64,000 nt of DNA from Escherichia coli (GTDB taxonomy: Bacteria; Pseudomonadota; Gammaproteobacteria; Enterobacterales; Enterobacteriaceae). Below the pieces are notes generated by a model that saw only the letters and a program-made list of their open reading frames with translations, had not been told where the DNA came from and did not search any database. The stretch is from the NCBI RefSeq assembly GCF_024298765.1, contig NZ_CP101210.1; one strand, 5' to 3'. The position numbers and the translations under genes were made by a program. Positions 1 to 45,857 of the stretch are shown here, piece by piece (within the stretch, counting starts at the first letter, position 1; every line of letters begins with the position of its first letter).

Positions 1-188
1 CTGGTTGCATTGTGCTGGAGTTCTACAACTCCGGTAAGCTGCCGCTGGCGCTGCGTCCGGGCATGTTAATTGGTGCGCTGAGCTTTGAGCCGCTTTCCGG
101 CCCGGCGGCGCGACCTTACAACCGCCGTGAAGATGCGAAATATCGCAACCAGCAGGGCGCGGTAGCCAGCCGAATCGATAAAGACTAA
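1..188 (+). CDS. dcd: dCTP deaminase, 3' end only (start lies upstream of window)
   Basis: Frame 3 reads off the 5' edge and ends ...[23 protein letters not shown], stop at 186-188; matches recalled Dcd C-terminus; dcd-asmA synteny. Confidence 0.8.
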
Positions 189-209
189 TTCAGGCCCATT
201 GAGGATACC

Positions 210-2063: not shown

Positions 2064-2077
2064 GTTACCAGGTGACC

Positions 2078-2125
2078 TGTCCTGTAGGCCTGATAAGACG
2101 CGTAAAGCGTCGCATCAGGCGTTCG
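2078..2125. repeat. REP (palindromic unit) downstream of asmA
   Basis: GTAGGCCTGATAAGACGCG...CGTCGCATCAGGCG motif typical of enterobacterial REP. Confidence 0.7.
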
Positions 2126-2336
2126 CGGCGGCACCATTATATTCTGAATATGTAAGATCGAAGGCTGTTCCGTTCACTTGATGTTCCTCACTACTATGGA
2201 ACGCTCAAGCCGGTGAACGTGCCAGGGTGGCTCAATCGCCACCACCCTGGCAACCCGGGCTCCCGGCGGTAAATCGCCGCTGGCGCGGTTCCCTCATCTT
2301 ATTCCTTTCGGCTATCGGGTAAAATGACCGATACCA

Positions 2337-3920
2337 TCACACCTCGTACTCCAACTCGCCATCCTTATGCAGCGGAATAATCTGCACCTTCTGCACGCGA
2401 TGGCTTTCCACCTGCAACGTTTTAAGCAAATAATCCCCCACCTGAACTTCTTCGCCAGGTTTTGGAATACGCTGTAAATATTCCATCAACAGCCCGGCAA
2501 TGGTGTGATATTCACGTTTTTCATCCAGCGGCAGCGGCACATATTGCACCAGATCTTCCAGCGGCATATGACCATTCGCCGTCCAGGAACCGTCCGCATT
2601 CTTCTGAATATCATGGCGGGCGTCGATCTCTTCCACTTCGTTCGGTAAGTTACCGGCAATGGTTTCAGTGACGTCACTTAATGTCACAATCCCTTCCACC
2701 GAGCCAAACTCATCCACCACAAAAGCAAAGTGCGTGCGGGCATTACGGAACTGCTCCAGGGCAGGTAACAACGGCAAGGTTTCCGGGAACACCAGCGGCT
2801 GGCGAATCAACACCCGCAGGTTGAGCGGTTCGCCACGCAGTGACTGTTGTAGCAGGTCGATAACGTGAACAACACCGAGCAAATCTTCTGCGTCATCACC
2901 GTCGGTAACCACCAGCCGCGTATGCTGATTTCGCTCCAGCAACTGGCGGATCTCGTCTTCCGGCGCGTTGAGATCGATATGCTCAATATCGTGGCGCGAC
3001 GTCATAATGCTGCTGACAGTACGCTGGTTAAGATTAAGTACCCGCTCAATCATCCGCCGTTCCTGCGGATTAAAGATCTGCTGGTTACCATGATCCACCA
3101 GCATGGACGCGGTTTCGGCGTCCAGTTCCGCATCTTCTTTTTGCCCGCTAAGCAGGCGCATTACCGCTTCGGTAGTCCGCTGGCGTAGCGTCTGGTTAGC
3201 GGAAAGAAAACGTCGCCGGTTAAAGATAGCCAACTGATTGAGCGCCTCGATCATCACCGAGAAACCAATGGCAGCGTACAGGTAGCCTTTCGGAATGACG
3301 AAGCCGAAACCTTCTGCCACCAGGCTAAAGCCAATCATCAACAGGAAGCTTAAGCAGAGAATAACGATGGTCGGGTGACTGTTAACAAATTGCGTTAACG
3401 GCTTGCTGGCCATCAACATCAGGCTGATAGCGATAACCACGGCGGCCATCATGACCAGTAAATGGTCGACCATCCCGACGGCGGTAATCACTGAGTCGAG
3501 TGAGAAGATGGCGTCCAGTACCACAATTTGTGTCACCACCCCCCAGAACTTCGCACCTTTGCGTTGTGTGGGATTATTGCTGTCTTTCCCTTCCAGCCGT
3601 TCGTTCAGCTCCATCGTGGCTTTGAACAACAGGAAGAAACCACCAAACAGCATGATTAAGTCGCGGGCGCTAAAGGTAAACGAGCGGAAGCTGAACAGCG
3701 GTTGCGTCAGGGTGACCAGCCAGGAGATTGACGCCAGCAGTAACAGGCGCATTAACATCGCCAGCAGCAGCCCGGTAACCCGTGCGCGGTCGCGCTGCTT
3801 CGGCGGTAGTTTTTCGGCGAGGATGGCAATAAAGACCAGGTTATCAATGCCGAGGACCAGTTCGATCACAATCAGCGTGATTAACCCGGCCCAGATAGAC
3901 GGATCGGCAATCCATTCCAT
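2337..3920 (-). CDS. yegH: TerC-family inner membrane protein with CBS/CorC domains
   Basis: ORF track gives 549 aa; likely true start is [10 protein letters not shown] (527 aa); hydrophobic N-terminal half then CBS-like C-terminal half. Confidence 0.85.
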
Positions 3921-4361
3921 AGTAAGTACAAAACCTATTCGTTGTATGACAAATGTCACAATTCGATCATGGATAAATCGGGGCAAAAATGCAATGTTGC
4001 AGCACTATTTATCTCATATTATTTGAGGGTAATAACCTCACATTATCCCTGAATTAAAAGTGGTAATAATAAAACATTATTTAAGAAATATCGCATGTGG
4101 AGGCGCAATATTAAATATTGTCAACCTAAAGAAACTCCTAAAAACCATATTGAATGACACTTAATATAATTCTTAAAAATAGCCAATTGCCGAATTGTTA
4201 CCTTGCCTGCTATTCCGTTAGCTGTAACACTTCCTCCTGCATTATTGGAGAGCCAATATTCAATTACCATAATGTCACCTTATATTCGGAAGTTAATTTC
4301 CGCAATAACCCTTTCTCATCAACGATTGTATGCAGAGAGGGTTTGAAAAATTAAGCTAAAT

Positions 4362-4400
4362 CAGTGTATTGGTAGCTAAAAAGCCAGGGGCGGTAGCGTG
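4362..4400 (+). promoter_or_regulatory. JUMPstart element with ops (GGCGGTAGCGTG, 4389-4400) in colanic acid operon leader
   Basis: cagtgtattggtagctaaaaagccaggggcggtagcgtg about 180 bp upstream of wza; ops is the RfaH recruitment site. Confidence 0.85.
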
Positions 4401-4578
4401 TCTGGATGCCTGAAAGACCAGTCTGAATTATTCTGTCAATAGCCTGCGGATGAAATCAATTTTTTTAGGACTGATGCCAGTTAAATTTGTATTCAATTAA
4501 CTGCAAGGTAAATGTGCATGGCGACATTGCTATTAATAGTGCACAGGATAATTACTCTGCCAAAGTGATAAATAAACA

Positions 4579-5718
4579 ATGATGAAATCCAAAATGAAAT
4601 TGATGCCATTATTGGTGTCAGTAACCTTGATAAGCGGTTGCACAGTACTTCCGGGCAGCAATATGTCGACGATGGGCAAAGACGTCATCAAACAGCAGGA
4701 CGCTGATTTCGATCTCGACAAAATGGTGAATGTTTATCCGCTGACCCCGCGCCTGATTGACCAATTACGCCCACGCCCGAATGTAGCGCGCCCCAATATG
4801 ACGCTGGAAAGTGAGATCGCGAATTACCAGTATCGCGTCGGGCCGGGCGACGTTCTGAATGTCACCGTCTGGGATCACCCGGAACTCACCACGCCAGCCG
4901 GTCAGTACCGCAGCTCCAGCGACACCGGCAACTGGGTACAGCCTGACGGCACTATGTTTTACCCGTATATCGGCAAGGTCCACGTAGTCGGGAAAACGCT
5001 CGCTGAAATCCGCAGTGATATTACCGGGCGCTTAGCGACGTACATCGCTGACCCGCAGGTGGATGTTAATATCGCCGCCTTCCGCTCGCAAAAGGCCTAT
5101 ATCTCAGGTCAGGTGAATAAATCCGGTCAACAGGCGATCACCAACGTACCACTGACCATTCTCGACGCCATCAACGCCGCAGGTGGCCTGACCGACACCG
5201 CTGACTGGCGCAACGTGGTGCTAACACACAATGGTCGTGAAGAACGCATTTCTTTGCAGGCGCTGATGCAAAACGGCGACCTCAATCAGAACCGACTGCT
5301 TTACCCCGGCGATATTCTCTACGTGCCGCGTAATGATGATCTGAAAGTGTTTGTGATGGGTGAAGTGAAGAAACAGAGCACCCTGAAAATGGACTTTAGC
5401 GGCATGACCCTGACTGAAGCCCTGGGCAATGCCGAAGGTATCGACATGACCACCTCCAACGCCAGCGGCATCTTTGTCATTCGTCCGCTGAAAGGCGAGG
5501 GCGGGCGTAACGGCAAGATTGCCAATATCTACCAGCTGGATATGTCCGATGCCACGTCGCTGGTGATGGCGACAGAATTCCGCCTGCAACCTTATGACGT
5601 GGTGTATGTCACCACCGCCCCGGTTTCCCGCTGGAACCGTCTGATCAATCAGTTGCTGCCAACTATTAGCGGTGTCCGTTACATGACGGATACAGCCAGC
5701 GACATTCATAACTGGTAA
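4579..5718 (+). CDS. wza: Outer membrane polysaccharide export lipoprotein
   Basis: 379 aa, lipoprotein signal (LISGC); first gene of colanic acid cluster. Confidence 0.95.
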
Positions 5719-5723
5719 TCGTC

Positions 5724-6167
5724 ATGTTTAACAACATCTTAGTTGTCTGTGTCGGCAATATTTGCCGTTCCCCGACGGCGGAACGCTTACTGCAACGTTA
5801 TCACCCGGAGCTGAAAGTGGAGTCCGCTGGACTCGGCGCGCTGGTCGGTAAGGGCGCTGATCCTACCGCTATCAGCGTCGCCGCAGAACATCAACTGTCT
5901 CTGGAAGGTCACTGTGCCCGTCAAATCAGCCGCCGTCTGTGTCGCAACTACGACCTGATTTTGACCATGGAAAAGCGCCATATCGAACGCTTATGCAAGA
6001 TGGCACCCGAGATGCGCGGCAAAGTGATGCTGTTTGGTCACTGGGATAACGAATGTGAAATCCCCGATCCGTATCGCAAAAGCCGGGAAACGTTTGCAGC
6101 GGTGTACACATTACTTGAACGGTCTGCCCGCCAGTGGGCGCAGGCATTGAACGCAGAGCAGGTATAA
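5724..6167 (+). CDS. wzb: Low-molecular-weight protein-tyrosine phosphatase
   Basis: 147 aa, N-terminal CVGNICRSP P-loop motif. Confidence 0.95.
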   Translation: MFNNILVVCVGNICRSPTAERLLQRYHPELKVESAGLGALVGKGADPTAISVAAEHQLSLEGHCARQISRRLCRNYDLILTMEKRHIERLCKMAPEMRGKVMLFGHWDNECEIPDPYRKSRETFAAVYTLLERSARQWAQALNAEQV

Positions 6168-6169
6168 GA

Positions 6170-8332
6170 ATGACAGAAAAAGTAAAACAACATGCCGCTC
6201 CGGTAACGGGCAGTGATGAAATCGATATTGGTCGCCTGGTCGGCACCGTCATTGAAGCGCGCTGGTGGGTGATTGGCATCACCGCTGTATTTGCCCTCTG
6301 TGCCGTGGTTTACACCTTCTTCGCCACGCCGATTTATAGTGCCGACGCACTGGTACAAATCGAGCAAAACAGCGGCAATTCGTTAGTGCAGGATATCGGA
6401 TCGGCGTTAGCCAACAAACCGCCTGCATCGGACGCCGAGATCCAGTTGATTCGTTCGCGTCTGGTGCTTGGTAAAACGGTGGACGATCTCGACCTCGATA
6501 TTGCAGTGAGCAAAAACACGTTCCCGATTTTCGGTGCGGGCTGGGATCGCCTGATGGGACGTCAGAACGAGACGGTGAAAGTGACCACCTTTAACCGCCC
6601 GAAAGAGATGGCGGATCAGGTGTTTACGCTTAATGTGCTGGACGATAAAAACTACACCCTGAGCAGCGACGGCGGCTTTAGCGCCCGTGGGCAAGCGGGC
6701 CAGATGCTGAAAAAAGAAGGCGTCACGCTGATGGTTGAAGCCATTCACGCCCGCCCGGGCAGTGAGTTTACCGTCACCAAATACTCCACGTTGGGGATGA
6801 TCAACCAACTGCAAAACAGCCTGACGGTAACGGAGAACGGCAAAGACGCAGGCGTACTGAGCCTGACTTATACCGGTGAAGATCGCGAACAGATCCGCGA
6901 CATTCTTAACAGCATCGCCCGTAACTATCAGGAACAAAATATTGAGCGCAAATCGGCGGAAGCGTCGAAAAGCCTCGCTTTCCTCGCGCAACAGTTACCG
7001 GAAGTACGTAGCCGCCTCGATGTTGCCGAAAACAAACTGAATGCCTTCCGTCAGGATAAAGATTCTGTTGATCTGCCGCTGGAAGCGAAAGCGGTGCTCG
7101 ATTCGATGGTGAACATCGACGCGCAGTTGAACGAACTGACCTTTAAAGAGGCGGAAATCTCCAAGCTGTACACCAAAGTTCACCCGGCGTACCGCACGCT
7201 GCTGGAGAAACGTCAGGCGCTGGAAGAAGAGAAAGCCAAACTTAACGGTCGCGTAACGGCGATGCCGAAAACCCAGCAGGAGATTGTGCGCCTGACCCGC
7301 GATGTCGAGTCTGGTCAGCAGGTCTATATGCAACTGCTGAATAAAGAGCAGGAGCTGAAAATCACCGAAGCCAGCACCGTCGGCGATGTGCGCATTGTTG
7401 ACCCGGCAATCACCCAGCCTGGCGTGCTGAAACCGAAGAAAGGGCTGATTATCCTCGGCGCGATTATCCTTGGCCTGATGCTTTCTATCGTGGGTGTGCT
7501 GCTGCGCTCGTTGTTTAATCGCGGCATCGAAAGCCCGCAGGTGCTGGAAGAACACGGTATCAGCGTCTATGCCAGCATCCCGCTGTCGGAATGGCAGAAA
7601 GCGCGCGATAGCGTCAAAACCATCAAAGGGATTAAACGCTATAAACAGAGCCAGCTACTGGCGATGGGGAATCCAACCGATCTGGCGATTGAAGCCATCC
7701 GCAGTCTGCGTACCAGTTTGCACTTCGCGATGATGCAGGCACAGAACAATGTGTTGATGATGACCGGGGTTAGCCCGTCAATCGGTAAAACCTTTGTCTG
7801 CGCCAACCTGGCGGCGGTGATCAGCCAGACCAATAAACGGGTGTTGTTGATCGACTGCGATATGCGCAAAGGCTACACCCACGAGCTGCTGGGCACTAAT
7901 AACGTTAATGGCCTGTCGGAAATTCTGATTGGTCAGGGCGATATTACTACCGCTGCTAAACCGACCTCTATTGCCAAATTTGACCTGATCCCGCGCGGTC
8001 AGGTGCCGCCAAATCCTTCTGAACTGTTGATGAGCGAACGCTTTGCCGAACTGGTGAACTGGGCGAGTAAAAACTATGACCTGGTGTTGATTGATACGCC
8101 GCCGATTCTGGCAGTGACCGATGCGGCAATTGTTGGTCGTCATGTCGGAACCACATTAATGGTGGCGCGTTATGCGGTCAACACATTGAAAGAAGTGGAA
8201 ACCAGTCTGAGCCGCTTTGAGCAAAACGGTATTCCGGTGAAAGGGGTGATTCTGAACTCCATCTTCCGCCGCGCCAGCGCGTATCAGGATTATGGCTATT
8301 ACGAATACGAATATAAGTCGGATGCGAAATAA
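6170..8332 (+). CDS. wzc: Tyrosine autokinase / polysaccharide co-polymerase
   Basis: Start taken at MTEKVKQ (720 aa), not the upstream track start 6134; Walker A GVSPSIGKT; Tyr-rich C-terminus YQDYGYYEYEYKSD. Confidence 0.95.
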   Translation: MTEKVKQHAAPVTGSDEIDIGRLVGTVIEARWWVIGITAVFALCAVVYTFFATPIYSADALVQIEQNSGNSLVQDIGSALANKPPASDAEIQLIRSRLVLGKTVDDLDLDIAVSKNTFPIFGAGWDRLMGRQNETVKVTTFNRPKEMADQVFTLNVLDDKNYTLSSDGGFSARGQAGQMLKKEGVTLMVEAIHARPGSEFTVTKYSTLGMINQLQNSLTVTENGKDAGVLSLTYTGEDREQIRDILNSIARNYQEQNIERKSAEASKSLAFLAQQLPEVRSRLDVAENKLNAFRQDKDSVDLPLEAKAVLDSMVNIDAQLNELTFKEAEISKLYTKVHPAYRTLLEKRQALEEEKAKLNGRVTAMPKTQQEIVRLTRDVESGQQVYMQLLNKEQELKITEASTVGDVRIVDPAITQPGVLKPKKGLIILGAIILGLMLSIVGVLLRSLFNRGIESPQVLEEHGISVYASIPLSEWQKARDSVKTIKGIKRYKQSQLLAMGNPTDLAIEAIRSLRTSLHFAMMQAQNNVLMMTGVSPSIGKTFVCANLAAVISQTNKRVLLIDCDMRKGYTHELLGTNNVNGLSEILIGQGDITTAAKPTSIAKFDLIPRGQVPPNPSELLMSERFAELVNWASKNYDLVLIDTPPILAVTDAAIVGRHVGTTLMVARYAVNTLKEVETSLSRFEQNGIPVKGVILNSIFRRASAYQDYGYYEYEYKSDAK

Positions 8333-8356
8333 CGACGCCTGCATTCGCACCGCCCC

Positions 8357-8391
8357 GTAGGCCGGATAAGGCGCTCACGCCGCATCCGGCA
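8357..8391. repeat. REP element downstream of wzc
   Basis: GTAGGCCGGATAAGGCGC...GCCGCATCCGGCA palindromic unit. Confidence 0.7.
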
Positions 8392-8424
8392 AGCAAACCA
8401 GCTCATAAGCCGGGAGAACAACCT

Positions 8425-9264
8425 ATGAAAGACAATCCGCTGATCTCAATCTATATGCCGACCTGGAACCGCCAACAACTGGCGATTCGGGCGATAAAAT
8501 CGGTCTTGCGCCAGGACTACAGCAACTGGGAGATGATCATCGTGGATGATTGCTCCACCTCCTGGGAACAGCTTCAGCAGTACGTCACCGCCCTCAACGA
8601 TCCGCGTATTACCTACATTCACAACGACATTAACAGCGGGGCGTGCGCGGTACGTAACCAGGCGATTATGCTGGCGCAAGGGGAATACATCACCGGGATC
8701 GATGATGATGATGAATGGACGCCCAACCGCCTGAGCGTCTTCCTCGCCCATAAACAGCAACTGGTCACCCACGCCTTTTTGTACGCTAACGACTACGTTT
8801 GTCAGGGCGAAGTCTATTCCCAACCGGCAAGTTTGCCGCTGTATCCCAAATCGCCGTATTCACGCCGCCTGTTCTACAAACGCAATATCATTGGCAATCA
8901 GGTCTTTACCTGGGCGTGGCGTTTCAAAGAGTGTTTGTTCGATACCGAACTGAAAGCGGCACAGGATTACGACATCTTCCTGCGGATGGTGGTGGAGTAT
9001 GGCGAACCGTGGAAAGTGGAAGAAGCGACGCAGATCCTGCATATCAATCACGGTGAAATGCAGATCACCTCGTCACCGAAAAAATTCTCCGGATACTTCC
9101 ACTTTTACCGCAAGCACAAAGACAAATTCGACCGGGCCAGCAAAAAATATCAGCTGTTTACCCTCTACCAGATCCGCAATAAACGTATGACCTGGCGCAC
9201 TTTGCTGACGCTGCTGTCGGTGCGTAACGGCAAACGTCTGGCTGATGGTATTCGGGGGCGCTAA
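8425..9264 (+). CDS. wcaA: Colanic acid glycosyltransferase (GT2)
   Basis: 279 aa; GT2 N-terminal motifs (ISIYMPTWN, IIVDDCS). Confidence 0.9.
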   Translation: MKDNPLISIYMPTWNRQQLAIRAIKSVLRQDYSNWEMIIVDDCSTSWEQLQQYVTALNDPRITYIHNDINSGACAVRNQAIMLAQGEYITGIDDDDEWTPNRLSVFLAHKQQLVTHAFLYANDYVCQGEVYSQPASLPLYPKSPYSRRLFYKRNIIGNQVFTWAWRFKECLFDTELKAAQDYDIFLRMVVEYGEPWKVEEATQILHINHGEMQITSSPKKFSGYFHFYRKHKDKFDRASKKYQLFTLYQIRNKRMTWRTLLTLLSVRNGKRLADGIRGR

Positions 9265-9266
9265 AG

Positions 9267-9755
9267 ATGCTGGAAGATCTGCGCGCCAACAGCTGGAGTT
9301 TACGCCCGTGCTGCATGGTTCTTGCCTATCGCGTTGCTCATTTTTGTTCGGTGTGGCGCAAAAAGAACGTCCTCAACAATCTGTGGGCGGCCCCGCTGCT
9401 GGTGCTGTATCGCATTATCACCGAATGCTTTTTCGGTTATGAAATCCAGGCCGCCGCGACCATTGGCCGCCGCTTTACTATCCATCACGGTTACGCCGTA
9501 GTGATCAATAAAAACGTGGTAGCGGGGGATGATTTCACCATTCGCCACGGCGTCACTATCGGCAATCGTGGTGCCGATAACATGGCATGTCCACACATTG
9601 GCAACGGCGTCGAACTCGGAGCCAACGTCATTATTCTTGGTGATATCACGCTTGGTAACAACGTCACCGTGGGCGCGGGCAGCGTGGTGCTCGACTCTGT
9701 CCCGGACAACGCGCTGGTGGTGGGAGAAAAAGCGCGAGTGAAGGTAATTAAATGA
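9267..9755 (+). CDS. wcaB: Colanic acid acetyltransferase (hexapeptide-repeat)
   Basis: 162 aa; left-handed beta-helix hexapeptide repeats. Confidence 0.9.
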   Translation: MLEDLRANSWSLRPCCMVLAYRVAHFCSVWRKKNVLNNLWAAPLLVLYRIITECFFGYEIQAAATIGRRFTIHHGYAVVINKNVVAGDDFTIRHGVTIGNRGADNMACPHIGNGVELGANVIILGDITLGNNVTVGAGSVVLDSVPDNALVVGEKARVKVIK

Positions 9756-16080: not shown

Positions 16081-17300
16081 AAATACTGGTCTACGGCATT
16101 AACTACTCGCCGGAGTTAACCGGCATCGGCAAATACACCGGAGAAATGGTGGAATGGCTGGCGGCGCAAGGTCATGAGGTGCGGGTTATTACCGCACCGC
16201 CTTACTACCCGCAGTGGCAGGTGGGCGAGAACTATTCCGCCTGGCGCTACAAACGAGAAGAGGGGGCCGCCACGGTGTGGCGCTGCCCGCTGTACGTGCC
16301 AAAACAGCCGAGCACCCTGAAACGCCTGTTGCATCTCGGCAGTTTTGCCGTCAGCAGTTTTTTCCCGTTGATGGCGCAACGTCGCTGGAAGCCGGTTCGC
16401 ATTATCGGCGTGGTGCCAACGCTGTTTTGCACGCCGGGAATGCGCCTGCTGGCGAAACTCTCTGGTGCGCGTACCGTGCTGCATATTCAGGATTACGAAG
16501 TGGACGCCATGCTGGGGCTGGGCCTTGCCGGAAAAGGCAAAGGCGGCAAAGTGGCACAGCTGGCAACGGCGTTCGAACGTAGCGGACTGCATAACGTCGA
16601 TAACGTCTCCACGATTTCGCGTTCGATGATGAATAAAGCCATCGAAAAAGGCGTGGCGGCGGAAAACGTCATCTTCTTCCCCAACTGGTCGGAAATCGCC
16701 CGTTTTCAGCATGTTGCAGACACCGATGTTGATGCCCTTCGTAACCAGCTTGGCCTGCCGGATAACAAAAAAATCATTCTTTACTCCGGCAATATTGGTG
16801 AAAAGCAGGGGCTGGAAAACGTTATTGAAGCTGCCGATCGTCTGCGCGATGAACCGCTGATTTTTGCCATTGTCGGGCAGGGCGGCGGCAAAGCGCGGCT
16901 GGAAAAAATGGCGCAGCAGCGTGGACTGCGCAACATGCAATTTTTCCCGCTGCAATCGTATGACGCTTTACCCGCACTGCTGAAGATGGGCGATTGCCAT
17001 CTGGTGGTGCAAAAACGCGGCGCGGCAGATGCCGTATTGCCGTCGAAACTGACCAATATTCTGGCGGTAGGCGGTAACGCGGTGATTACCGCAGAAGCCC
17101 ACACAGAACTGGGACAGCTTTGCGAAACCTTTCCGGGCATTGCGGTTTGCGTGGAACCGGAATCGGTCGAGGCGCTGGTGGCGGGGATCCGTCAGGCGCT
17201 CCTGCTGCCCAAACACAACACGGTGGCACGTGAATATGCCGAACGCACACTCGATAAAGAGAACGTGTTACGTCAATTTATAAATGATATTCGGGGATAA
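16077..17300 (+). CDS. wcaI: Colanic acid glycosyltransferase
   Basis: 407 aa; GT-B type; synteny. Confidence 0.9.
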
Positions 17301-23312: not shown

Positions 23313-23329
23313 GTTGCTGTTTTCGGTTC

Positions 23330-23535
23330 CGACAACGGTTGCCGGATGCGGCGTAAAACGCCTTATCCATCCTACGGTTCCGTGCTCGGGACCTGTAGGC
23401 CTGATAAGACGCGTCAGCGTCGCATCAGGCACTGAATGCCGGATGCGGCGTGAACGCCTTATCCGGCCTACGGTTCTGTGCTCGGGTCTTGTAGGCCTGA
23501 TAAGACGCGTCAGCGTCGCATCAGGCAAAAAGCGG
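23330..23535. repeat. BIME: about four REP palindromic units in alternating orientation, with an internal ~96-bp tandem duplication
   Basis: Alternating GCCGGATGCGGCGT(A/G)AACGCCTTATCC and GGCCTGATAAGACGCGTCAGCGTCGCATCAGGC units; the long track ORF 23314-24867 reads through them artefactually. Confidence 0.8.
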
Positions 23536-23586
23536 CAACGAACAAAACAAACACAGCCCACCTGGCATCAAATTTATGAGGAAAAA

Positions 23587-24867
23587 ATGAAATTACTTAT
23601 TCTGGGCAACCACACTTGCGGCAATCGTGGCGACAGCGCCATCCTGCGCGGCTTACTTGATGCCATCAACATCCTCAATCCACACGCCGAAGTGGACGTG
23701 ATGAGCCGCTATCCGGTCAGTTCTTCCTGGCTGCTCAACCGCCCGGTAATGGGCGATCCGCTGTTCCTGCAAATGAAACAACACAACAGCGCGGCGGGCG
23801 TTGTCGGGCGCGTTAAAAAAGTCCTCCGTCGCCGCTACCAGCATCAGGTATTGCTCTCACGCGTCACCGACACTGGCAAGCTGCGTAATATCGCCATCGC
23901 CCAGGGATTCACCGACTTCGTGCGCCTGCTGTCAGATTACGACGCCATTATTCAGGTCGGCGGATCGTTTTTTGTCGATCTCTACGGCGTGCCGCAGTTT
24001 GAACATGCACTTTGCACGTTTATGGCGAAAAAGCCGCTGTTTATGATTGGTCACAGCGTCGGTCCCTTCCAGGATGAGCAATTTAACCAACTGGCGAACT
24101 ACGTTTTTGGTCACTGCGACGCGCTGATCCTGCGCGAATCGGTCAGCCTTGATCTGATGAAACGCAGCAATATCACTACCGCAAAAGTGGAACATGGCGT
24201 CGATACCGCGTGGCTGGTCGATCACCACACAGAAGAATTCACCGCCAGCTATGCCGTTCAACACTGGCTGGACGTTGCCGCACAACAGAAAACGGTGGCA
24301 ATTACCCTGCGCGAACTGGCACCGTTCGACAAACGTCTCGGCACCACTCAACAAGCGTATGAAAAAGCCTTTGCCGGGGTGGTCAATCGCATTCTCGACG
24401 AAGGCTATCAGGTTATTGCGCTCTCCACCTGTACGGGCATCGACAGCTATAATAAAGACGACCGCATGGTGGCGCTCAATCTTCGCCAGCACATCAGCGA
24501 TCCTGCCCGTTACCACGTGGTGATGGATGAACTCAACGATCTGGAAATGGGCAAAATTCTCGGAGCCTGTCAACTCACCGTCGGTACGCGTCTGCACTCA
24601 GCCATTATCTCGATGAATTTCTCCACTCCGGCAATTGCCATCAACTACGAACATAAATCCGCCGGGATTATGCAGCAGCTGGGGCTGCCAGAGATGGCGA
24701 TCGATATCCGTCATTTATTAGATGGCAGCCTGCAAGCGATGGTTGCGGATACCTTAGGCCAGCTTCCGGCGCTGAACGCACGACTTAGCGAAGCCGTCAG
24801 TCGCGAACGTCAGACGGGAATGCAGATGGTGCAATCTGTGCTTGAGCGCATCGGGGAGGTGAAATGA
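23587..24867 (+). CDS. wcaK: Colanic acid pyruvyl transferase
   Basis: Start taken at MKLLILGNH (426 aa) downstream of the REP cluster; synteny. Confidence 0.9.
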   Translation: MKLLILGNHTCGNRGDSAILRGLLDAINILNPHAEVDVMSRYPVSSSWLLNRPVMGDPLFLQMKQHNSAAGVVGRVKKVLRRRYQHQVLLSRVTDTGKLRNIAIAQGFTDFVRLLSDYDAIIQVGGSFFVDLYGVPQFEHALCTFMAKKPLFMIGHSVGPFQDEQFNQLANYVFGHCDALILRESVSLDLMKRSNITTAKVEHGVDTAWLVDHHTEEFTASYAVQHWLDVAAQQKTVAITLRELAPFDKRLGTTQQAYEKAFAGVVNRILDEGYQVIALSTCTGIDSYNKDDRMVALNLRQHISDPARYHVVMDELNDLEMGKILGACQLTVGTRLHSAIISMNFSTPAIAINYEHKSAGIMQQLGLPEMAIDIRHLLDGSLQAMVADTLGQLPALNARLSEAVSRERQTGMQMVQSVLERIGEVK

Positions 24868-26094: not shown

Positions 26095-27489
26095 ATGCCA
26101 TTTAAAACACTCTCCCGACGCACCTTCCTGACGGCAAGCTCGGCGCTTGCCTTCCTCCATACCCCTTTCGCTCGCGCACTTCCCGCCCGACAAAGCGTTA
26201 ACATTAACGACTACAACCCACACGACTGGATCGCCTCATTTAAACAAGCCTTCAGCGAAGGGCGAACGGTCGTCGTGCCTGCCGGATTGGTTTGTGACAA
26301 TATCAACACCGGCATCTTCATTCCTCCCGGCAAAACGTTACACATCCTTGGAAGCCTGCGCGGCAATGGCAGAGGGCGATTTGTCTTACAGGACGGCAGC
26401 CAGGTGACAGGGGAGGAGGGCGGCAGTATGCATAACATCACCCTGGATGTGCGTGGCTCTGACTGCACCATCAAAGGGCTGACGATGAGCGGCTTTGGTC
26501 CGGTAACGCAGATTTATATCGGCGGCAAAAACAAACGAGTAATGCGTAACCTCTCCATCGATAACCTGACCGTTAGCCACGCTAATTACGCCATCTTACG
26601 CCAGGGATTTCATAACCAGATTATCGGTGCCAACATCACCAACTGTAAATTTAGTGATTTACAGGGCGACGCCATTGAATGGAACGTGGCGATTAACGAC
26701 CGTGATATTTTGATATCTGACCATGTCATCGAGCGCATCAACTGTACCAACGGCAAAATCAACTGGGGTATCGGCATAGGCCTTGCGGGAAGTACCTACG
26801 ATAATAACTACCCGGAAGACCAGGCAGTGAAAAACTTTGTCGTGGCGAATATCACGGGATCGGATTGTCGGCAGTTGATCCATGTTGAAAATGGTAAACA
26901 TTTTGTTATTCGTAATATCAAAGCCCGCAATATCACGCCGGATTTCAGTAAGAAAGCAGGTATTGATAACGCGACGGTCGCTATTTACGGTTGTGACAAT
27001 TTCGTGATTGATAATATTGAAATGATTAATAGCGCCGGAATGTTAATCGGCTATGGGGTAATTAAAGGCACATATCTCTCGATACCGCAAAATTTCCGAG
27101 TGAATAATATTCAACTGGATAATACCCACCTTGCTTACAAATTGCGCGGCATCCAAATCTCTGCCGGGAATGCCGTCTCCTTTGTGGCACTGACTAACAT
27201 TGAGATGAAGCGTGCGTCGCTGGAGTTACACAACAAACCGCAACATCTTTTTATGCGAAATATCAAGGTGATGCAGGAATCCTCAGTTGGACCCGCATTG
27301 AGCATGAACTTTGACATGCGCAAAGACGTTCGCGGCGTATTTATGGCGAAAAAAGAAACACTACTGTCTCTTGCAAATGTTCATGCGGTGAATGAAAAAG
27401 GGCAAAGCTCCGTCGATATCGACAGGATTAATCACCATATTGTTAATGTGGAAAAGATTAACTTTAGATTGCCGGAACGGAGGGAGTAG
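26095..27489 (+). CDS. wcaM: Colanic acid biosynthesis protein WcaM (signal peptide, predicted beta-helix)
   Basis: 464 aa; N-terminal Tat-like signal [13 protein letters not shown]; last gene of the wca cluster. Confidence 0.9.
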
Positions 27490-27646
27490 ATTTGCGACCA
27501 TTCATAAACTTACTGGATATAATGTTCTAAAAGATTATAATCCTCACACTAACTGTTAAAGCTGGGGCTGGGCAGCATTGACTACTCAGGGAAGGTACTC
27601 ATCTTTATCTTGTGTTTCTTACGTAACAACCAGACTAAAGTGATTT

Positions 27647-28642
27647 ATGAACGATAACGTTTTGCTCATAGGAGCTTCCGGATTCGTAGGAACCCGACTA
27701 CTTGAAACGGCAATTGCTGACTTTAATATCAAGAACCTGGACAAACAGCAGAGCCACTTTTATCCAGAAATCACACAGATTGGCGATGTTCGCGATCAAC
27801 AGGCACTCGACCAGGCATTAGTTGGTTTTGACACTGTTGTACTACTGGCAGCGGAACACCGCGATGACGTCAGCCCTACTTCTCTCTATTATGATGTCAA
27901 CGTTCAGGGTACCCGCAATGTGCTGGCGGCCATGGAAAAAAATGGCGTTAAAAATATCATCTTTACCAGTTCCGTTGCTGTTTATGGTTTGAACAAACAT
28001 AACCCTGACGAAAACCATCCACACGACCCTTTCAACCACTACGGCAAAAGTAAGTGGCAGGCAGAGGAAGTGCTGCGTGAATGGTATAACAAAGCACCAA
28101 CAGAACGTTCATTAACCATCATCCGTCCTACCGTTATCTTCGGTGAACGCAACCGCGGTAACGTCTATAACTTGCTGAAACAGATCGCTGGCGGCAAGTT
28201 TATGATGGTGGGCGCAGGGACTAACTATAAGTCCATGGCTTATGTTGGAAACATTGTTGAGTTTATCAAGTACAAACTGAAGAATGTTGCCGCAGGTTAT
28301 GAGGTTTATAACTACGTTGATAAGCCAGACCTGAACATGAACCAGTTGGTTGCTGAAGTTGAACAAAGTCTGAACAAAAAGATCCCTTCTATGCACTTGC
28401 CTTACCCACTAGGAATGCTGGGTGGATATTGCTTTGATATCCTGAGCAAAATTACGGGCAAAAAATACGCTGTCAGCTCTGTGCGCGTGAAAAAGTTCTG
28501 CGCAACTACACAGTTTGACGCAACGAAAGTGCATTCGTCAGGTTTTGTTGCACCGTATACGCTGTCGCAAGGTCTGGATCGAACTCTGCAGTATGAATTC
28601 GTCCATGCCAAAAAAGACGACATAACGTTTGTTTCTGAGTAA
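27647..28642 (+). CDS. gne: NAD-dependent UDP-N-acetylhexosamine 4-epimerase (Gne-like SDR)
   Basis: 331 aa; Rossmann GASGFVGTRL; sits between wcaM and galF where some E. coli lineages carry gne. Confidence 0.8.
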   Translation: MNDNVLLIGASGFVGTRLLETAIADFNIKNLDKQQSHFYPEITQIGDVRDQQALDQALVGFDTVVLLAAEHRDDVSPTSLYYDVNVQGTRNVLAAMEKNGVKNIIFTSSVAVYGLNKHNPDENHPHDPFNHYGKSKWQAEEVLREWYNKAPTERSLTIIRPTVIFGERNRGNVYNLLKQIAGGKFMMVGAGTNYKSMAYVGNIVEFIKYKLKNVAAGYEVYNYVDKPDLNMNQLVAEVEQSLNKKIPSMHLPYPLGMLGGYCFDILSKITGKKYAVSSVRVKKFCATTQFDATKVHSSGFVAPYTLSQGLDRTLQYEFVHAKKDDITFVSE

Positions 28643-28884
28643 TGCAGACGAGTCAGAGAAAAAAGGACTAGGTTGGACTACGATTATTCGGAAAGAGGTA
28701 CTGATTAAATTATCAGTATGTGGATTTCCGAGTAATCCGAGTAACCCAGATGCTGATGGTGTGTAGTGTTATCGTAAGGTTTAAGCAAAGTTATGCGGAA
28801 CTAAGCTTTGGTATATAGCCATAACGTTTGGCTAACCTATGGCAATAATTTACGCACTATCAGCCACTTAGAGGTAGGAAAAGA

Positions 28885-29778
28885 ATGACGAATTTAAAAG
28901 CAGTTATACCGGTAGCAGGTCTTGGGATGCATATGTTGCCTGCCACTAAGGCGATTCCCAAAGAGATGCTACCGATCGTCGACAAGCCAATGATTCAGTA
29001 CATTGTTGACGAGATTGTGGCTGCAGGGATCAAAGAAATCCTCCTGGTAACTCATGCGTCCAAGAACGCGGTCGAAAACCACTTCGACACCTCTTATGAA
29101 TTAGAATCTCTCCTTGAACAGCGCGTGAAGCGTCAGCTGCTGGCGGAAGTGCAGTCCATCTGTCCGCCTGGCGTGACCATTATGAACGTGCGTCAGGGTG
29201 AACCTTTAGGTTTGGGCCACTCCATTTTATGTGCACGACCCGCCATTGGTGACAACCCATTTGTCGTGGTGCTGCCAGACGTTGTGATCGATGACGCCAG
29301 CGCCGACCCGCTGCGCTACAACCTTGCTGCCATGATTGCGCGCTTCAACGAAACGGGCCGCAGCCAGGTGCTGGCAAAACGTATGCCGGGTGACCTCTCT
29401 GAATACTCCGTCATTCAGACCAAAGAACCGCTGGACCGTGAAGGCAAAGTCAGCCGCATTGTTGAATTTATCGAAAAACCGGATCAGCCGCAGACGCTGG
29501 ACTCAGACATCATGGCCGTAGGTCGTTATGTGCTTTCTGCTGATATTTGGCCGGAACTGGAACGTACTCAGCCTGGTGCATGGGGGCGTATTCAGCTTAC
29601 TGATGCTATTGCCGAACTGGCGAAAAAACAGTCCGTTGATGCCATGCTGATGACTGGAGACAGCTACGACTGCGGTAAAAAAATGGGCTATATGCAGGCG
29701 TTTGTGAAGTATGGGCTGCGCAACCTGAAAGAAGGGGCGAAGTTCCGCAAAGGTATTGAGAAGGTGTTAAGTGAATAA
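28885..29778 (+). CDS. galF: UTP-glucose-1-phosphate uridylyltransferase paralogue (GalU-like regulatory subunit)
   Basis: 297 aa; nucleotidyltransferase motif [25 protein letters not shown]. Confidence 0.95.
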
Positions 29779-30011
29779 AAATTGATCATCCATATATGGT
29801 GGATTGAATAAAAATAGAACTGCAGTGAACATTCAAAAGAAAAGATGATTACGTTATAAGAATGTTCCTGTCTTTTATTGAAAGTATTTAATAACAATAA
29901 GTTACAGCATGTATCGCTCGTACATAGATTTTCCTTGTATTTGACTTCGTTTGATTAGACTATTGGAAAATAGTGAAAAGTATTAAATAATTAGTACCTA
30001 TGATTCATTTT

Positions 30012-30050
30012 CAGTGAGTTGGTAACTGTTAAGCCAAGGGCGGTAGCGTG
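30012..30050 (+). promoter_or_regulatory. JUMPstart element with ops (GGCGGTAGCGTG, 30039-30050) in O-antigen operon leader
   Basis: cagtgagttggtaactgttaagccaagggcggtagcgtg; same 39-bp architecture as the wza leader copy. Confidence 0.85.
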
Positions 30051-30085
30051 TGTTTTGATCCTACCCACGTAATATGGACACAGGC

Positions 30086-30841
30086 CTAAGCGAGGTTCTG
30101 GTTTTCAAATTGTTCCGGACTGAGGCCGCCACACCAACTGTGCCGCCGCCACCGATTGTAATCACATTCGATATAATTAAACACCGTTGCCCGCATTATT
30201 TCCCGGCTGATAAAGTGTTCTCCATGGATACATTCCACTTTCAGCGAATGAAAGAAGCTTTCCACGCAGGCATTATCGTAGCAGCAACCTTTTGCGCTCA
30301 TACTTCCACGCAGATTATGCCGCTTCAGTTGCGCCGTCATGCGTGGCGACATTGACCAGCCAATAACGGCACGTGACCACAGGTCAATGACCACTGCCAG
30401 ATACAGCCAGCCTTCATCTGTACGTAAGTACGTGATGTCTCCTGCCCACTTCTGGTTCGGGCCACTGGCGTAAAAATCCTGCTCCAACAGATTTTCTGAC
30501 ACAGGCAGGCCGTGTGCGCGGTAGCTGACCGGGCTGAACTTCCGGGAGGCCTTTGCCCTCAGTCCCTGACGGCGCAGGCTTGCCGCCACGGTTTTTACGT
30601 TAAAGGGGTAACCCTGAGCACGCAGTTCATCCGTCAGGCGTGGGGCACCGTAACGCTGTTTTGACCGGGTAAAAGCCGCGAGGACAACGCTGTCGCAGTG
30701 TTGGCGGAACTGCTGACGCGTGCTTATCCTTGTCCGCCGCTGACACCACGTATACCAGCCGCTGCGGGCCACCCGGAGCACGCGGCACATTGCTTTGATG
30801 CTGAACTCAGCCTGATGTTTTTCAATAAAGACATACTTCAT
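30086..30841 (-). pseudogene. insF: IS3 OrfB transposase catalytic domain, apparently truncated by in-frame internal deletion (251 aa versus recalled 288 aa)
   Basis: [19 protein letters not shown]...; junction PRMTAQL|KRHNLRG at about 30326/30327; recalled intact OrfB has about 37 extra residues here including HTDRGGQY. Confidence 0.7.
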
Positions 30842-31146
30842 TTCAGGCGCTTCGCGAAGTATGTCGCGGCCTTTTGGAGGATAGCCAGCTCTTCATCCCG
30901 TTCTGCCAGCTGGCGTTTGAGACGTGCAATCTCGGTAGACATCTCCAGTTCACGTTCAGAAGACGTCTGCTGATTTTGCTGTTTACTGCGCCAGTTGTAG
31001 AGCTGTGATTCATACAGGCTGAGTTCACGGGCTGCGGCAGTAACACCGATGCGTTCAGCAAGCTTCAGGGCTTCACTGCGAAATTCAGGCGAATGCTGTT
31101 TACGGGGTTTTTTACTGGTTGATACTGTTTTTGTCATGTGAGTCAC
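30838..31146 (-). CDS. insE: IS3 OrfA (transposase N-terminal HTH protein)
   Basis: 102-aa ORF ...[50 protein letters not shown]...; leucine-zipper-like C-terminus. Confidence 0.9.
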
Positions 31147-31237
31147 CTCTGACTGAGAGTTTACTCACTTAGCCGCGTGTCCACTATTGCTGGGTAAGAT
31201 CATTTTTCTCTCAATCCTCATGATAAAGGAGGTTTAT

Positions 31238-32257
31238 ATGGTGATTTTCGTAACAGGCGGTGCAGGATATATTGGATCCCATACCATACTTGAGTTACTT
31301 AATAATGGTCATGATGCCGTTTCGATAGATAATTTTGCCAATTCCTCTATAGAATCATTAAAAAGAGTAGAGCAAATAACTAATAAGAAAATTATTTCTT
31401 ATCAAGGTGATATCCGTGATAAAAATCTACTTGATGAGATTTTTTCAAGACATCATATCGATGCTGTAATTCATTTTGCATCGTTAAAATCTGTAGGTGA
31501 GTCAAAGTTAAAGCCCTTAGAGTATTATTCTAATAATGTTGGTGGAACTTTAGTATTACTTGAATGCATGAAGAGATATAACATTAATAAAATGATATTT
31601 AGCTCTTCTGCTACTGTTTATGGGAATAACAGTATCCCTCCCCATACGGAAGATAGACGAATTGGTGAAACTACAAACCCATATGGGACATCGAAGTTTA
31701 TAATAGAAATGATTTTGAGTGATTATTGTGATAGCGATAATAATAAATCAGTAATTGCACTACGTTATTTTAATCCAATCGGAGCACATAAGTCCGGGAT
31801 GATTGGTGAAAATCCTAACGGGATTCCTAATAATCTGGTTCCTTATATATCTAAAGTTGCACAAAATCAACTTCCTGTATTAAATATTTATGGCAACGAT
31901 TATCCAACTAAAGATGGTACAGGAGTAAGAGACTATATACATGTCTGTGATTTGGCTAAAGGGCATGTTAAAGCATTAGAATATATGTTTTTAAATGATG
32001 TCAATTATGAGGCTTTTAATTTAGGTACTGGTCAAGGTTATTCTGTTTTAGAGATTGTAAAAATGTTTGAGATAGTCACTAAAAAGAGTATACCTTTTGC
32101 TATTTGTAATAGACGTGAGGGGGATGTTGCTGAGTCATGGGCGTCTGCTGATTTGGCACATGAAAAGCTTTCCTGGAAAGCGGAAAAAAAATTGAAAGAA
32201 ATGATCGAAGATGTATGGCGTTGGCAAACAAAAAATCCAAATGGATATAAAAAATAA
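31238..32257 (+). CDS. UDP-hexose 4-epimerase (GalE/Gne family), first O-antigen gene
   Basis: Start at ATG 31238 with AGGAGG RBS (track ORF begins 31187, overlapping the IS end); 339 aa; TGGAGYIGSHT Rossmann, NPYGTSK, YxxxK; AT-rich. Confidence 0.85.
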   Translation: MVIFVTGGAGYIGSHTILELLNNGHDAVSIDNFANSSIESLKRVEQITNKKIISYQGDIRDKNLLDEIFSRHHIDAVIHFASLKSVGESKLKPLEYYSNNVGGTLVLLECMKRYNINKMIFSSSATVYGNNSIPPHTEDRRIGETTNPYGTSKFIIEMILSDYCDSDNNKSVIALRYFNPIGAHKSGMIGENPNGIPNNLVPYISKVAQNQLPVLNIYGNDYPTKDGTGVRDYIHVCDLAKGHVKALEYMFLNDVNYEAFNLGTGQGYSVLEIVKMFEIVTKKSIPFAICNRREGDVAESWASADLAHEKLSWKAEKKLKEMIEDVWRWQTKNPNGYKK

Positions 32258-44837: not shown

Positions 44838-45857
44838 ATGGCTATTCTCGTTACAGGTGGTGCTGGTTATATTGCATCACATACTATACTGAGTTTGATA
44901 GAGCAGGGTAATGAAGTAATTATTATTGATAATTTATCAAATTCATATTATGATTCGTTATTGAAAATAAAAGAGATTACTGGATGTGATTGTCTTTTTT
45001 ATAAAGGAGATATCCTTGACAAAAAACTCTTGCTAAAAATATTTGATGAAAATAATATCACTGCTGTGATGCATTTTGCTGGTGCAAAGTCTGTAAGTGA
45101 ATCTGTTATCAGACCTTTGCAATACTATCGAAATAATGTCTCTGGCACTTTTTCTTTAGTTGAGGCAATGGAGGAGTCTGGTGTAGAAAATTTAATATTT
45201 AGCTCTTCAGCAACTGTCTATGGTGAGCCAAAGATTATTCCTGTGAATGAAAGTTGTGCTATAGGTGGTACTACAAATCCGTATGGAACGTCCAAGTTAT
45301 TTGTAGAGAACTTTTTGCGGGATTATTCTAAGGCATCCCCTAATTTTAAAACTATAGTATTAAGATATTTTAACCCTATCGGTGCTCACTCATCTGGAAA
45401 AATAGGTGAAGATCCTAACGGAATTCCGAATAACTTGATGCCCTTTATATGCCAGGTTGCTATCGGTAAACAAAAAACGCTCAAGATCTACGGAAATGAT
45501 TATCCTACTAAAGATGGTACTGGGATTCGCGATTATATTCATGTTATGGATCTTGCTGAAGGTCATGTTGCTGCATTAAATAATATTAATCAAGGAGCTA
45601 ATTATAGAGTTTACAACCTTGGAACAGGAATTGGATACTCTGTGTTGGAATTATTAGAAGCATTTCAGAAAGTTACAACTCGGAGAGTTCCCTATGTTTT
45701 TACTAAAAGGCGTTCAGGTGATATCGCTGAATGTTGGTCTGATCCTACCAAAGCGTATGAAGAATTAGGATGGAAAGCAAGGCGAGGGTTAGAAGATATG
45801 ATTCGTGATGCATGGAATTGGCAGCAAAAAAATCCAAATGGATTTAAGAAAGTTTAA
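44838..45857 (+). CDS. UDP-hexose 4-epimerase (GalE/Gne family), last O-antigen gene
   Basis: 339 aa; TGGAGYIASHT, NPYGTSK, IYGNDYPTKDGTGIRDYIHV; paralogous to the 31238 gene. Confidence 0.85.
   Translation: MAILVTGGAGYIASHTILSLIEQGNEVIIIDNLSNSYYDSLLKIKEITGCDCLFYKGDILDKKLLLKIFDENNITAVMHFAGAKSVSESVIRPLQYYRNNVSGTFSLVEAMEESGVENLIFSSSATVYGEPKIIPVNESCAIGGTTNPYGTSKLFVENFLRDYSKASPNFKTIVLRYFNPIGAHSSGKIGEDPNGIPNNLMPFICQVAIGKQKTLKIYGNDYPTKDGTGIRDYIHVMDLAEGHVAALNNINQGANYRVYNLGTGIGYSVLELLEAFQKVTTRRVPYVFTKRRSGDIAECWSDPTKAYEELGWKARRGLEDMIRDAWNWQQKNPNGFKKV

Follow-up and report, generated by a model that had tools for sequence, protein, structure and literature searches.

Which enzyme is encoded by the gene lying between wcaM and galF in this Escherichia coli strain, and how are its presence and its expression at that site to be explained? 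The question is raised by a stretch of 64,000 nucleotides (contig NZ_CP101210.1 of assembly GCF_024298765.1; hereafter the window), for which an earlier note had proposed that the gene is gne, that it is a lineage-variable insertion at the boundary of the colanic acid and O-antigen regions, and that, being expressed independently of the ops-controlled O-antigen operon, it supplies UDP-GalNAc for the O-unit and possibly for other glycans. The layout described there, a gene for a 331-aa SDR protein separated from wcaM and galF by spacers of 157 and 242 bp, is confirmed by the ORF coordinates and by the family matches (Table 1); the two spacers run exactly from 27490 to 27646 and from 28643 to 28884. 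This 996-bp CDS is also annotated in RefSeq, at identical spacing, in genomes of O157:H7, O128:H27, O146, O104 and O160 strains.

Table 1. Features of the wcaM-galF region and of the adjoining O-antigen cluster, in positions of the window.
Feature	Coordinates	Strand	Description and basis
wcaM	26095..27489	+	Final colanic acid cluster gene; match to the NCBIfam WcaM equivalog (1022 bits, cutoff 808)
Variable segment	27504..28867		1364 bp, against 142 unrelated bp in K-12; blastn of K-12 versus the window
Promoter-like site for gnu	27513..27541	+	CTG at 27513-27515 (in CTGGAT/TGGATA), spacer of 16-17 nt, perfect -10 TATAAT at 27536-27541
gnu (formerly gne/Z3206)	27647..28642	+	ATG start, TAA stop; 331-aa extended SDR; UndPP-GlcNAc 4-epimerase by RefSeq product name
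Stem-loop in the gnu-galF spacer	28682..28737	+	Basal stem AUUAUUCGGAAA / UUUCCGAGUAAU, inner 8-bp hairpin
galF	28885..29778	+	Right flank; match to the NCBIfam GalF equivalog (688 bits, cutoff 659)
JUMPstart with ops	30012..30050	+	Start of the RfaH-dependent O-antigen operon leader; Rfam RF01707; ops GGCGGTAG at 30039-30046
IS3 with internal deletion of about 111 bp	30057..31202	-	orfA/orfB ORFs; between JUMPstart and the first O-antigen gene
GalE-family 4-epimerase gene, probable gne	31238..32257	+	Opens the O128 cluster; match to NCBIfam GalE (423.6 bits, cutoff 262)
Second GalE-family 4-epimerase gene	44838..45857	+	Last gene before gnd; annotated galE in the O128:H27 reference

The protein encoded in the window is identical to that of E. 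coli O157:H7 (WP_000999466.1) at 330 of its 331 residues, the sole change being V59 here in place of A59, and the two genes share 98.5% of their nucleotides. Comparison with the Citrobacter sedlakii orthologue gave 22, 9 and 177 differences at the first, second and third codon positions; this excess of third-position substitutions against orthologues from other genera indicates that the gene is real and evolves under purifying selection. In RefSeq, each of the 1314 E. coli copies carries the product name N-acetyl-alpha-D-glucosaminyl-diphospho-ditrans,octacis-undecaprenol 4-epimerase. In the passages of PMC3682973 that describe the work of Rush et al. (2010), the O157 enzyme is inactive on UDP-GlcNAc and epimerises UndPP-GlcNAc, made by WecA, to UndPP-GalNAc; the corresponding passages of Liu et al. 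restate this activity and give the position of the gene as immediately upstream of galF (PMC7685785). The gene had originally been named gne, and UDP-GalNAc synthesis assumed, from its co-occurrence with GalNAc-containing O-antigens; the clade was renamed gnu by Cunneen et al. (2013), and across 115 serogroups the presence of gnu tracks GalNAc as the first sugar (PMC3682973).

The gene of the window is very probably gnu, coding for a lipid-linked UndPP-GlcNAc 4-epimerase beside the O128 cluster, with the activity taken from the literature on the O157 protein. As an enzyme inactive on UDP-GlcNAc, Gnu should not supply UDP-GalNAc; given the single residue that separates the two proteins and the agreement of the RefSeq naming, the name gne and the supply of UDP-GalNAc attributed to the gene are superseded, and no evidence was found for a contribution to other glycans. 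In an O128 strain this is an ordinary, textbook galF-linked gene, and it is already known as such.

The original annotation of 2002 would correspond to a classical Gne, that is, a soluble UDP-GlcNAc 4-epimerase making UDP-GalNAc for WecA or for glycosyltransferases. The first naming from co-occurrence with GalNAc O-antigens points in that direction, as does a weak similarity of the protein to the GalE family. The scores, however, lie far under the GalE cutoffs (TIGR01179, 70.3 bits against 262.3; NF007956, 55 bits against 394), and in a BLASTP comparison with the in-cluster GalE-family protein (27% over 177 aa) residues 5-160, the Rossmann half, are the only part aligned. The failed cutoff and the partial alignment set Gnu apart from GalE/Gne. 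Pfam matches were obtained both to Epimerase (PF01370, 3.8e-30) and to 3Beta_HSD (PF01073, 6.8e-27), and sequence matches in the PDB are weak (best E about 1e-17), those to GalE covering mainly residues 45-170.

The NAD motif GASGFVG is found at residue 9 and the catalytic motif YGKSK at residue 132; in 29 homologues, little or no variation was seen in the GxxGxxG motif or at Ser108, Tyr132 and Lys136. An AlphaFold2 model of Gnu (pLDDT 79.5, pTM 0.81) shows a GalE-like extended-SDR fold, with pLDDT below 50 at residues 69-84 and 110-129, which adjoin the active site. Gnu has no close relative with a solved structure: the nearest to the model is the UDP-GlcNAc C4-epimerase of Pseudomonas protegens (6wjb; TM 0.73-0.78, 20% identity), followed by other extended SDRs. 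Fold and nearest structure would suit a classical Gne; as this nearest fold is that of a UDP-GlcNAc 4-epimerase, structure alone cannot tell a lipid-linked from a nucleotide-linked substrate. In a proteome study the O157 protein was detected and found enriched, with other O-antigen enzymes, in the insoluble, inner-membrane-associated fraction (PMC3210124). A search for a membrane anchor in Gnu gave no transmembrane segment, the most hydrophobic stretch (residues 246-267) being moderately hydrophobic only, so that the membrane association suggested by the proteome fractionation is putative.

The surrounding cluster bears on the same point. Over wzx-wzy, the window matches O128 clusters at 99.8-99.9% identity, which identifies the host as an O128 strain. 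The O128 antigen has two GalNAc residues in its main chain and no GlcNAc, and gnu and gne are both needed and both present (Table S2, PMC3682973). It starts with GalNAc via WecA and its cluster holds no initial transferase, the situation expected for Gnu, with the chemistry drawn from the literature. According to the same Table S2, all seven gnu-bearing O-groups sampled (O128, O166, O157, O146, O104, O102 and O160) need gnu, or gnu or gne, and O16 and O25 are not among the groups that need gnu (PMC3682973). Of the two GalE-family genes in the cluster, the first occupies the position of gne2 of O86, and its product is the likely source of UDP-GalNAc, its assignment as Gne rather than GalE being probable; the product of the second is 55% identical to it. 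That the strain already holds two bona fide GalE-family genes argues against a classical Gne beside galF. So do the O86 knockouts, in which loss of gne1 (whose product is identical to the O157 protein) or of gne2 alters the LPS, which means that the two are not redundant, and so does the correlation with the first sugar across serogroups. We consider a classical Gne very improbable and retain the assignment as Gnu.

How widespread the gene is was determined in a sample of 5426 complete E. coli genomes, 1314 of which (24%) carry gnu. K-12 MG1655 has wcaM followed directly by galF, with a spacer of 174 bp. The 142-bp core of this spacer was found in 3242 genomes, and a query made of the wcaM end and the galF start joined over a 174-bp gap in 3239; the K-12 type comprises about 3240 genomes (60%), and the remaining 16% or so match neither the gnu-type nor the K-12-type allele. 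Strain K-12 lacks the gene and O157-type strains have it at exactly the same site, so the synteny that the earlier note had stated is borne out, and its claim that presence varies within the species stands; the finding that would have contradicted it, the gene at this site in every E. coli, K-12 included, was not made. The description as lineage-variable does not, because presence goes with the chemistry of the O-antigen (GalNAc as first sugar) and with local recombination rather than with lineage. An identical Gnu protein is found in O157, O128:H27, O146, O104 and O160 strains, and gnu alleles within E. coli are 1-5% apart, similar to the flanking genes.

Whether the gene was inserted is a separate matter. 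Homology with K-12 runs through wcaM (95.7% identical) to position 27503, 14 bp past its stop codon, and is picked up again at 28868, which is 17 bp ahead of the galF ATG. Direct or inverted repeats flanking the intervening 1364-bp segment did not exceed chance level (at most 13 nt, and none at 27504 or 28867), and no mobility ORFs lie within 27504-28867. What K-12 shares of this spacer is just the 14-bp wcaM-proximal end and about 40 nt next to galF. A search for remnants of gnu in the 142-bp K-12 core (blastn with word size 7, Smith-Waterman) left its middle 100 nt or so without any match, which favours neither polarity of the indel. The K-12 spacer shows, in its last 40 nt or so, homology to the galF-proximal end of the gnu-galF spacers of other genera, and with this stretch in common a loss of gnu fits the polymorphism as well as a gain.

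The order wcaM-gnu-galF, present in the window and in the sampled E. coli genomes, is kept with wcaL in front of it in about 11 other enterobacterial genera, and was found in Citrobacter, Enterobacter, Trabulsiella, Kluyvera, Cedecea, Pseudescherichia, Lelliottia, Siccibacter, Buttiauxella and E. albertii; Gnu identity in those genera (82-97%) scales with that of WcaM and GalF. It is distinctly unlikely, in our view, that gnu is a recent, horizontally inserted cassette of some E. coli lineages and the K-12 arrangement ancestral. Such an origin would agree with the GC content of gnu (45%, against 55% for wcaL and 52% for galF), with its presence in only 24% of genomes and with the existence of close homologues in marine Bacteroidota, which implies a transfer between phyla at some time. 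Conservation of the order across genera, with Gnu diverging in step with its neighbours, speaks against it, however, as do the lack of repeats and mobility genes at the segment, the replacement of 142 unrelated bp instead of a clean insertion, an allele divergence within E. coli like that of the flanking genes, and the galF-proximal homology that fits loss equally. The term insertion is therefore unproven for this gene.

As to the more distant homologues of Gnu, proteins 74-77% identical to it occur in the marine Bacteroidota Maribellus, Sunxiuqinia, Saccharicrinis, Prolixibacteraceae and Salinivirgaceae and in a Cloacimonadota MAG. Two of the loci were examined, those of Maribellus and Sunxiuqinia, and in both the gnu homologue comes directly after glycosyltransferase genes.

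With respect to expression, JUMPstart was identified with 52.5 bits (gathering score 35; E 2.5e-10) and with an exact ops match; a scan of 27300-31400 against Rfam (E <= 1) returned, besides JUMPstart, one chance snoRNA match and nothing else. JUMPstart and ops lie downstream of both gnu and galF, which puts gnu outside the ops-governed leader. In the 157-bp spacer between wcaM and gnu, a consensus scan detected TGGATA-16-TATAAT at 27514-27541, matching 10 of 12 positions, with a weak -35 region. When the spacer of the window was compared with 18 sequences, from about 11 other genera, CTG and a nearly invariant TATAAT formed its sole conserved island. A location upstream of JUMPstart together with a conserved -10 makes independent expression of gnu plausible, and a dedicated promoter, with good comparative support, is a plausible candidate for driving it. 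Of the independence from the ops operon that had been claimed, the position outside the leader holds and a conserved -10 lies upstream; transcription of gnu on its own stays at the level of a plausible proposal, based on sequence comparison.

Alternatively, gnu could be transcribed at the far end of the wca mRNA, or could head a transcript shared with galF, the upstream TATAAT being incidental. It is co-directional with wca and galF, and no intrinsic terminator was found by scanning the wcaM-gnu and gnu-galF spacers, nor is the hairpin 3' of gnu followed by a U-run; with no terminator-like site between wcaM and gnu, read-through from wca may occur. The wca genes, however, are normally silent without Rcs activation. 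Unlike them, O-antigen is produced under ordinary culture conditions, as is the O157 Gnu protein (PMC3210124). Moreover, the -10 is the lone conserved island of an otherwise diverged spacer, and a separate promoter-like element close to galF (CTATAAT/CTATACT) is conserved in other genera and in K-12. We regard a shared transcript as rather unlikely and favour a dedicated gnu promoter.

The gnu-galF spacer contains a second conserved element, a stem-loop that begins about 40 nt past the gnu stop codon. Its predicted minimum free energy is -31.6 kcal/mol (z -4.3), and that of a 60-nt core -26.3 kcal/mol (z -6.5). Among 16 sequences, the arms TCGGAAA/TTTCCGA show little or no variation, unlike the interior, and the two pairs adjoining the basal stem show 4 and 7 double compensatory changes; the structure was found in 13 of 16 genera. 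It is single-copy per genome and co-occurs with gnu in 1313 genomes. It has no match in Rfam. Two explanations of the element were discarded: an intrinsic terminator, because there is no U-tract after it, and a REP/ERIC-like dispersed repeat, because it occurs once per genome and in gnu-positive genomes only. It may be a transcript-end or stability element, which is a guess. Tentatively, and as a possible but doubtful reading, gnu may be viewed as a conserved Enterobacteriaceae cassette made up of its own promoter, the gene and an undescribed cis-acting stem-loop of about 56 nt, belonging to a family exchanged with marine Bacteroidota. Were that so, the stem-loop could be a 3'-end or stability determinant, or a binding site insulating gnu from galF.

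Local recombination has left traces around gnu. The O128:H27 strain 90-9281 is without the IS3 copy, the junctions overlapping by 4 bp, and a full-length IS3 at the same site was found in LHM10-1 and CP52E only. LHM10-1 shares the IS3 site and the O128 cluster with the window, and the common site is taken to indicate common descent of the region. Downstream of the IS, the window and LHM10-1 show 1 difference in 3675 bases; upstream of it, 44 of 48 differences lie in wcaM and gnu, and 2 after position 28775. This clustering of differences upstream marks a recombination breakpoint between gnu and galF in an IS3-marked O128 clone. Lying after JUMPstart, the IS3 copy may influence O-antigen expression in the strain of the window.

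Taken together with the published chemistry, the following pathway can be proposed. WecA would make GlcNAc-PP-undecaprenol at the cytoplasmic face of the inner membrane, and Gnu would epimerise C4 of the lipid-linked GlcNAc to give GalNAc-PP-undecaprenol, the first sugar of the O128 O-unit. In GalE-type chemistry, with Tyr132, Lys136 and Ser108 as the predicted catalytic residues, the C4 hydride would pass to a tightly bound NAD+, the 4-keto intermediate would turn, and the hydride would go back on the opposite face. UDP-GalNAc would be required for the other GalNAc of O128, the second and internal one, and would be provided by the separate GalE-family Gne of the cluster. Transcription of gnu would probably start from its own sigma-70 promoter, just outside the RfaH/ops operon, and the stem-loop 3' of gnu may serve to mark the transcript's 3' end or to stabilise it.

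The main value of these results is correct annotation, as the label gne and a role in UDP-GalNAc synthesis would mispredict the pathway. Assignment as gnu makes GalNAc the initiating sugar of O128, and thereby settles in which order the glycosyltransferases act and which linkage Wzy forms; it is also of relevance for glycoengineering that requires GalNAc-PP-Und primers. The population figures and the breakpoint update the known picture without changing it, and the conserved hairpin and the promoter-like site are small additions to it.

Among known systems, the closest is Gnu (Z3206) of O157:H7 (EC 5.1.3.26, clade D), which has the same CDS length, spacers and wcaM/galF neighbours as the gene of the window; it differs in residue A59 and in the cluster downstream, which is that of O157 and not of O128. 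Gnu of Yersinia pseudotuberculosis also belongs to clade D and shows an absolute correlation with GalNAc as first sugar, but has diverged by about 50% and is located within the O-antigen cluster, in contrast to the galF-linked site (PMC3682973). The GalE/Gne enzymes of clade A (E. coli GalE, 1udc; 6wjb) have in common with Gnu the extended SDR fold (TM about 0.7), the GxxGxxG motif and the Ser/Tyr/Lys triad; identity to them is about 20%, however, Gnu fails the GalE cutoff, and according to the literature their substrate is nucleotide-linked whereas that of Gnu is lipid-linked. To the lipid-acting SDRs of the 3-beta-HSD/NSDHL and HpnA types, the similarity of Gnu equals or exceeds that to GalE/Gne. 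With regard to gene arrangement, the gne1/gne2 pair of O86 offers the nearest parallel: as in the window, galF is preceded by a gnu-type gene, and the genes after it begin with a GalE-family gne; the O86 O-unit, like that of O128, contains GalNAc twice, once as the first sugar. The window departs from O86 in the defective IS3 placed between JUMPstart and the in-cluster gne, and in having another GalE-family gene at the O128 cluster's 3' end.

The spacer between gnu (the UndPP-GlcNAc 4-epimerase gene) and galF contains a conserved stem-loop, the basal stem of which (TCGGAAA/TTTCCGA) does not vary between enterobacterial genera. Covariation is found at the two pairs next to this basal stem, while the inner part varies; the dG of the structure is of -26 to -32 kcal/mol. 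Across 1313 E. coli genomes, the stem-loop was found together with gnu, as a single copy. It is not followed by a U-tract on its 3′ side, has no match in Rfam and is unannotated in the RefSeq records examined.

Closer to galF, a second element is kept across genera, and a diverged form of it is present in the E. coli gnu-type allele. The K-12 version is GCTATAATTCAGCAACCATTTTACAGGTGGA; that of Enterobacter, Lelliottia and Trabulsiella is CTATACTTCgTCAACCATTTTAAGGTGGA. The element looks like a galF promoter plus leader.

Coordinates of the elements described in the gnu-galF-JUMPstart region and of the Bacteroidota gnu homologues
Feature	Coordinates	Strand	Location
Conserved stem-loop	28682-28737		gnu-galF spacer
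galF-proximal element	28840-28884		In K-12 (L003), last ~40 nt of the wcaM-galF spacer
IS3 copy, internally deleted	30057-31202	minus	Between JUMPstart (30012-30050) and first O128 gene (31238)
Gnu homologue genes, Bacteroidota	L023, 3501-4496; L028, 3495-4487		

We compared window positions 26779-30335 with the corresponding locus of strain LHM10-1 (L040). Both share the IS3 insertion site and have near-identical O128 clusters. As gnu and wcaM each differ by 1.8%, whereas almost no difference is found from galF onwards, the transition at ~28775-29229 marks a recombination breakpoint.

The IS3 copy is inserted directly 3′ of the ops/JUMPstart element, and its orfB has an internal deletion of ~111 bp. 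A full-length IS3 at this same site was found only in LHM10-1 and CP52E; the O128:H27 reference strain has no IS3 between JUMPstart and the first O128 gene. With this insertion, the O-antigen operon may be disconnected from its own promoter and from its RfaH loading site.

The ops core GGCGGTAG occurs four times in the window (1.1 expected by chance), the three additional exact matches (3802-3809, 4389-4396 and 17063-17070) lying on the upstream side, inside or ahead of the colanic acid region. Separately, translation of the 5′ extension of the wcaK ORF (23314-23600) yields two near-identical peptide stretches (…LIRPTV.CSG.VGLIRRVSVASG…), hinting that the DNA between wzxC and wcaK contains REP-like repeats.

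Outside the Enterobacteriaceae, Gnu homologues with 74-77% identity to the E. coli protein are encoded by marine Bacteroidota (L023, L028, L024, L026 and L037) and by a Cloacimonadota MAG (L025). In the two loci looked at, the Maribellus/Sunxiuqinia pair L023 and L028, the homologue directly follows glycosyltransferase genes. Identity this high across phyla implies that the gene was transferred horizontally, which may have been in either direction.
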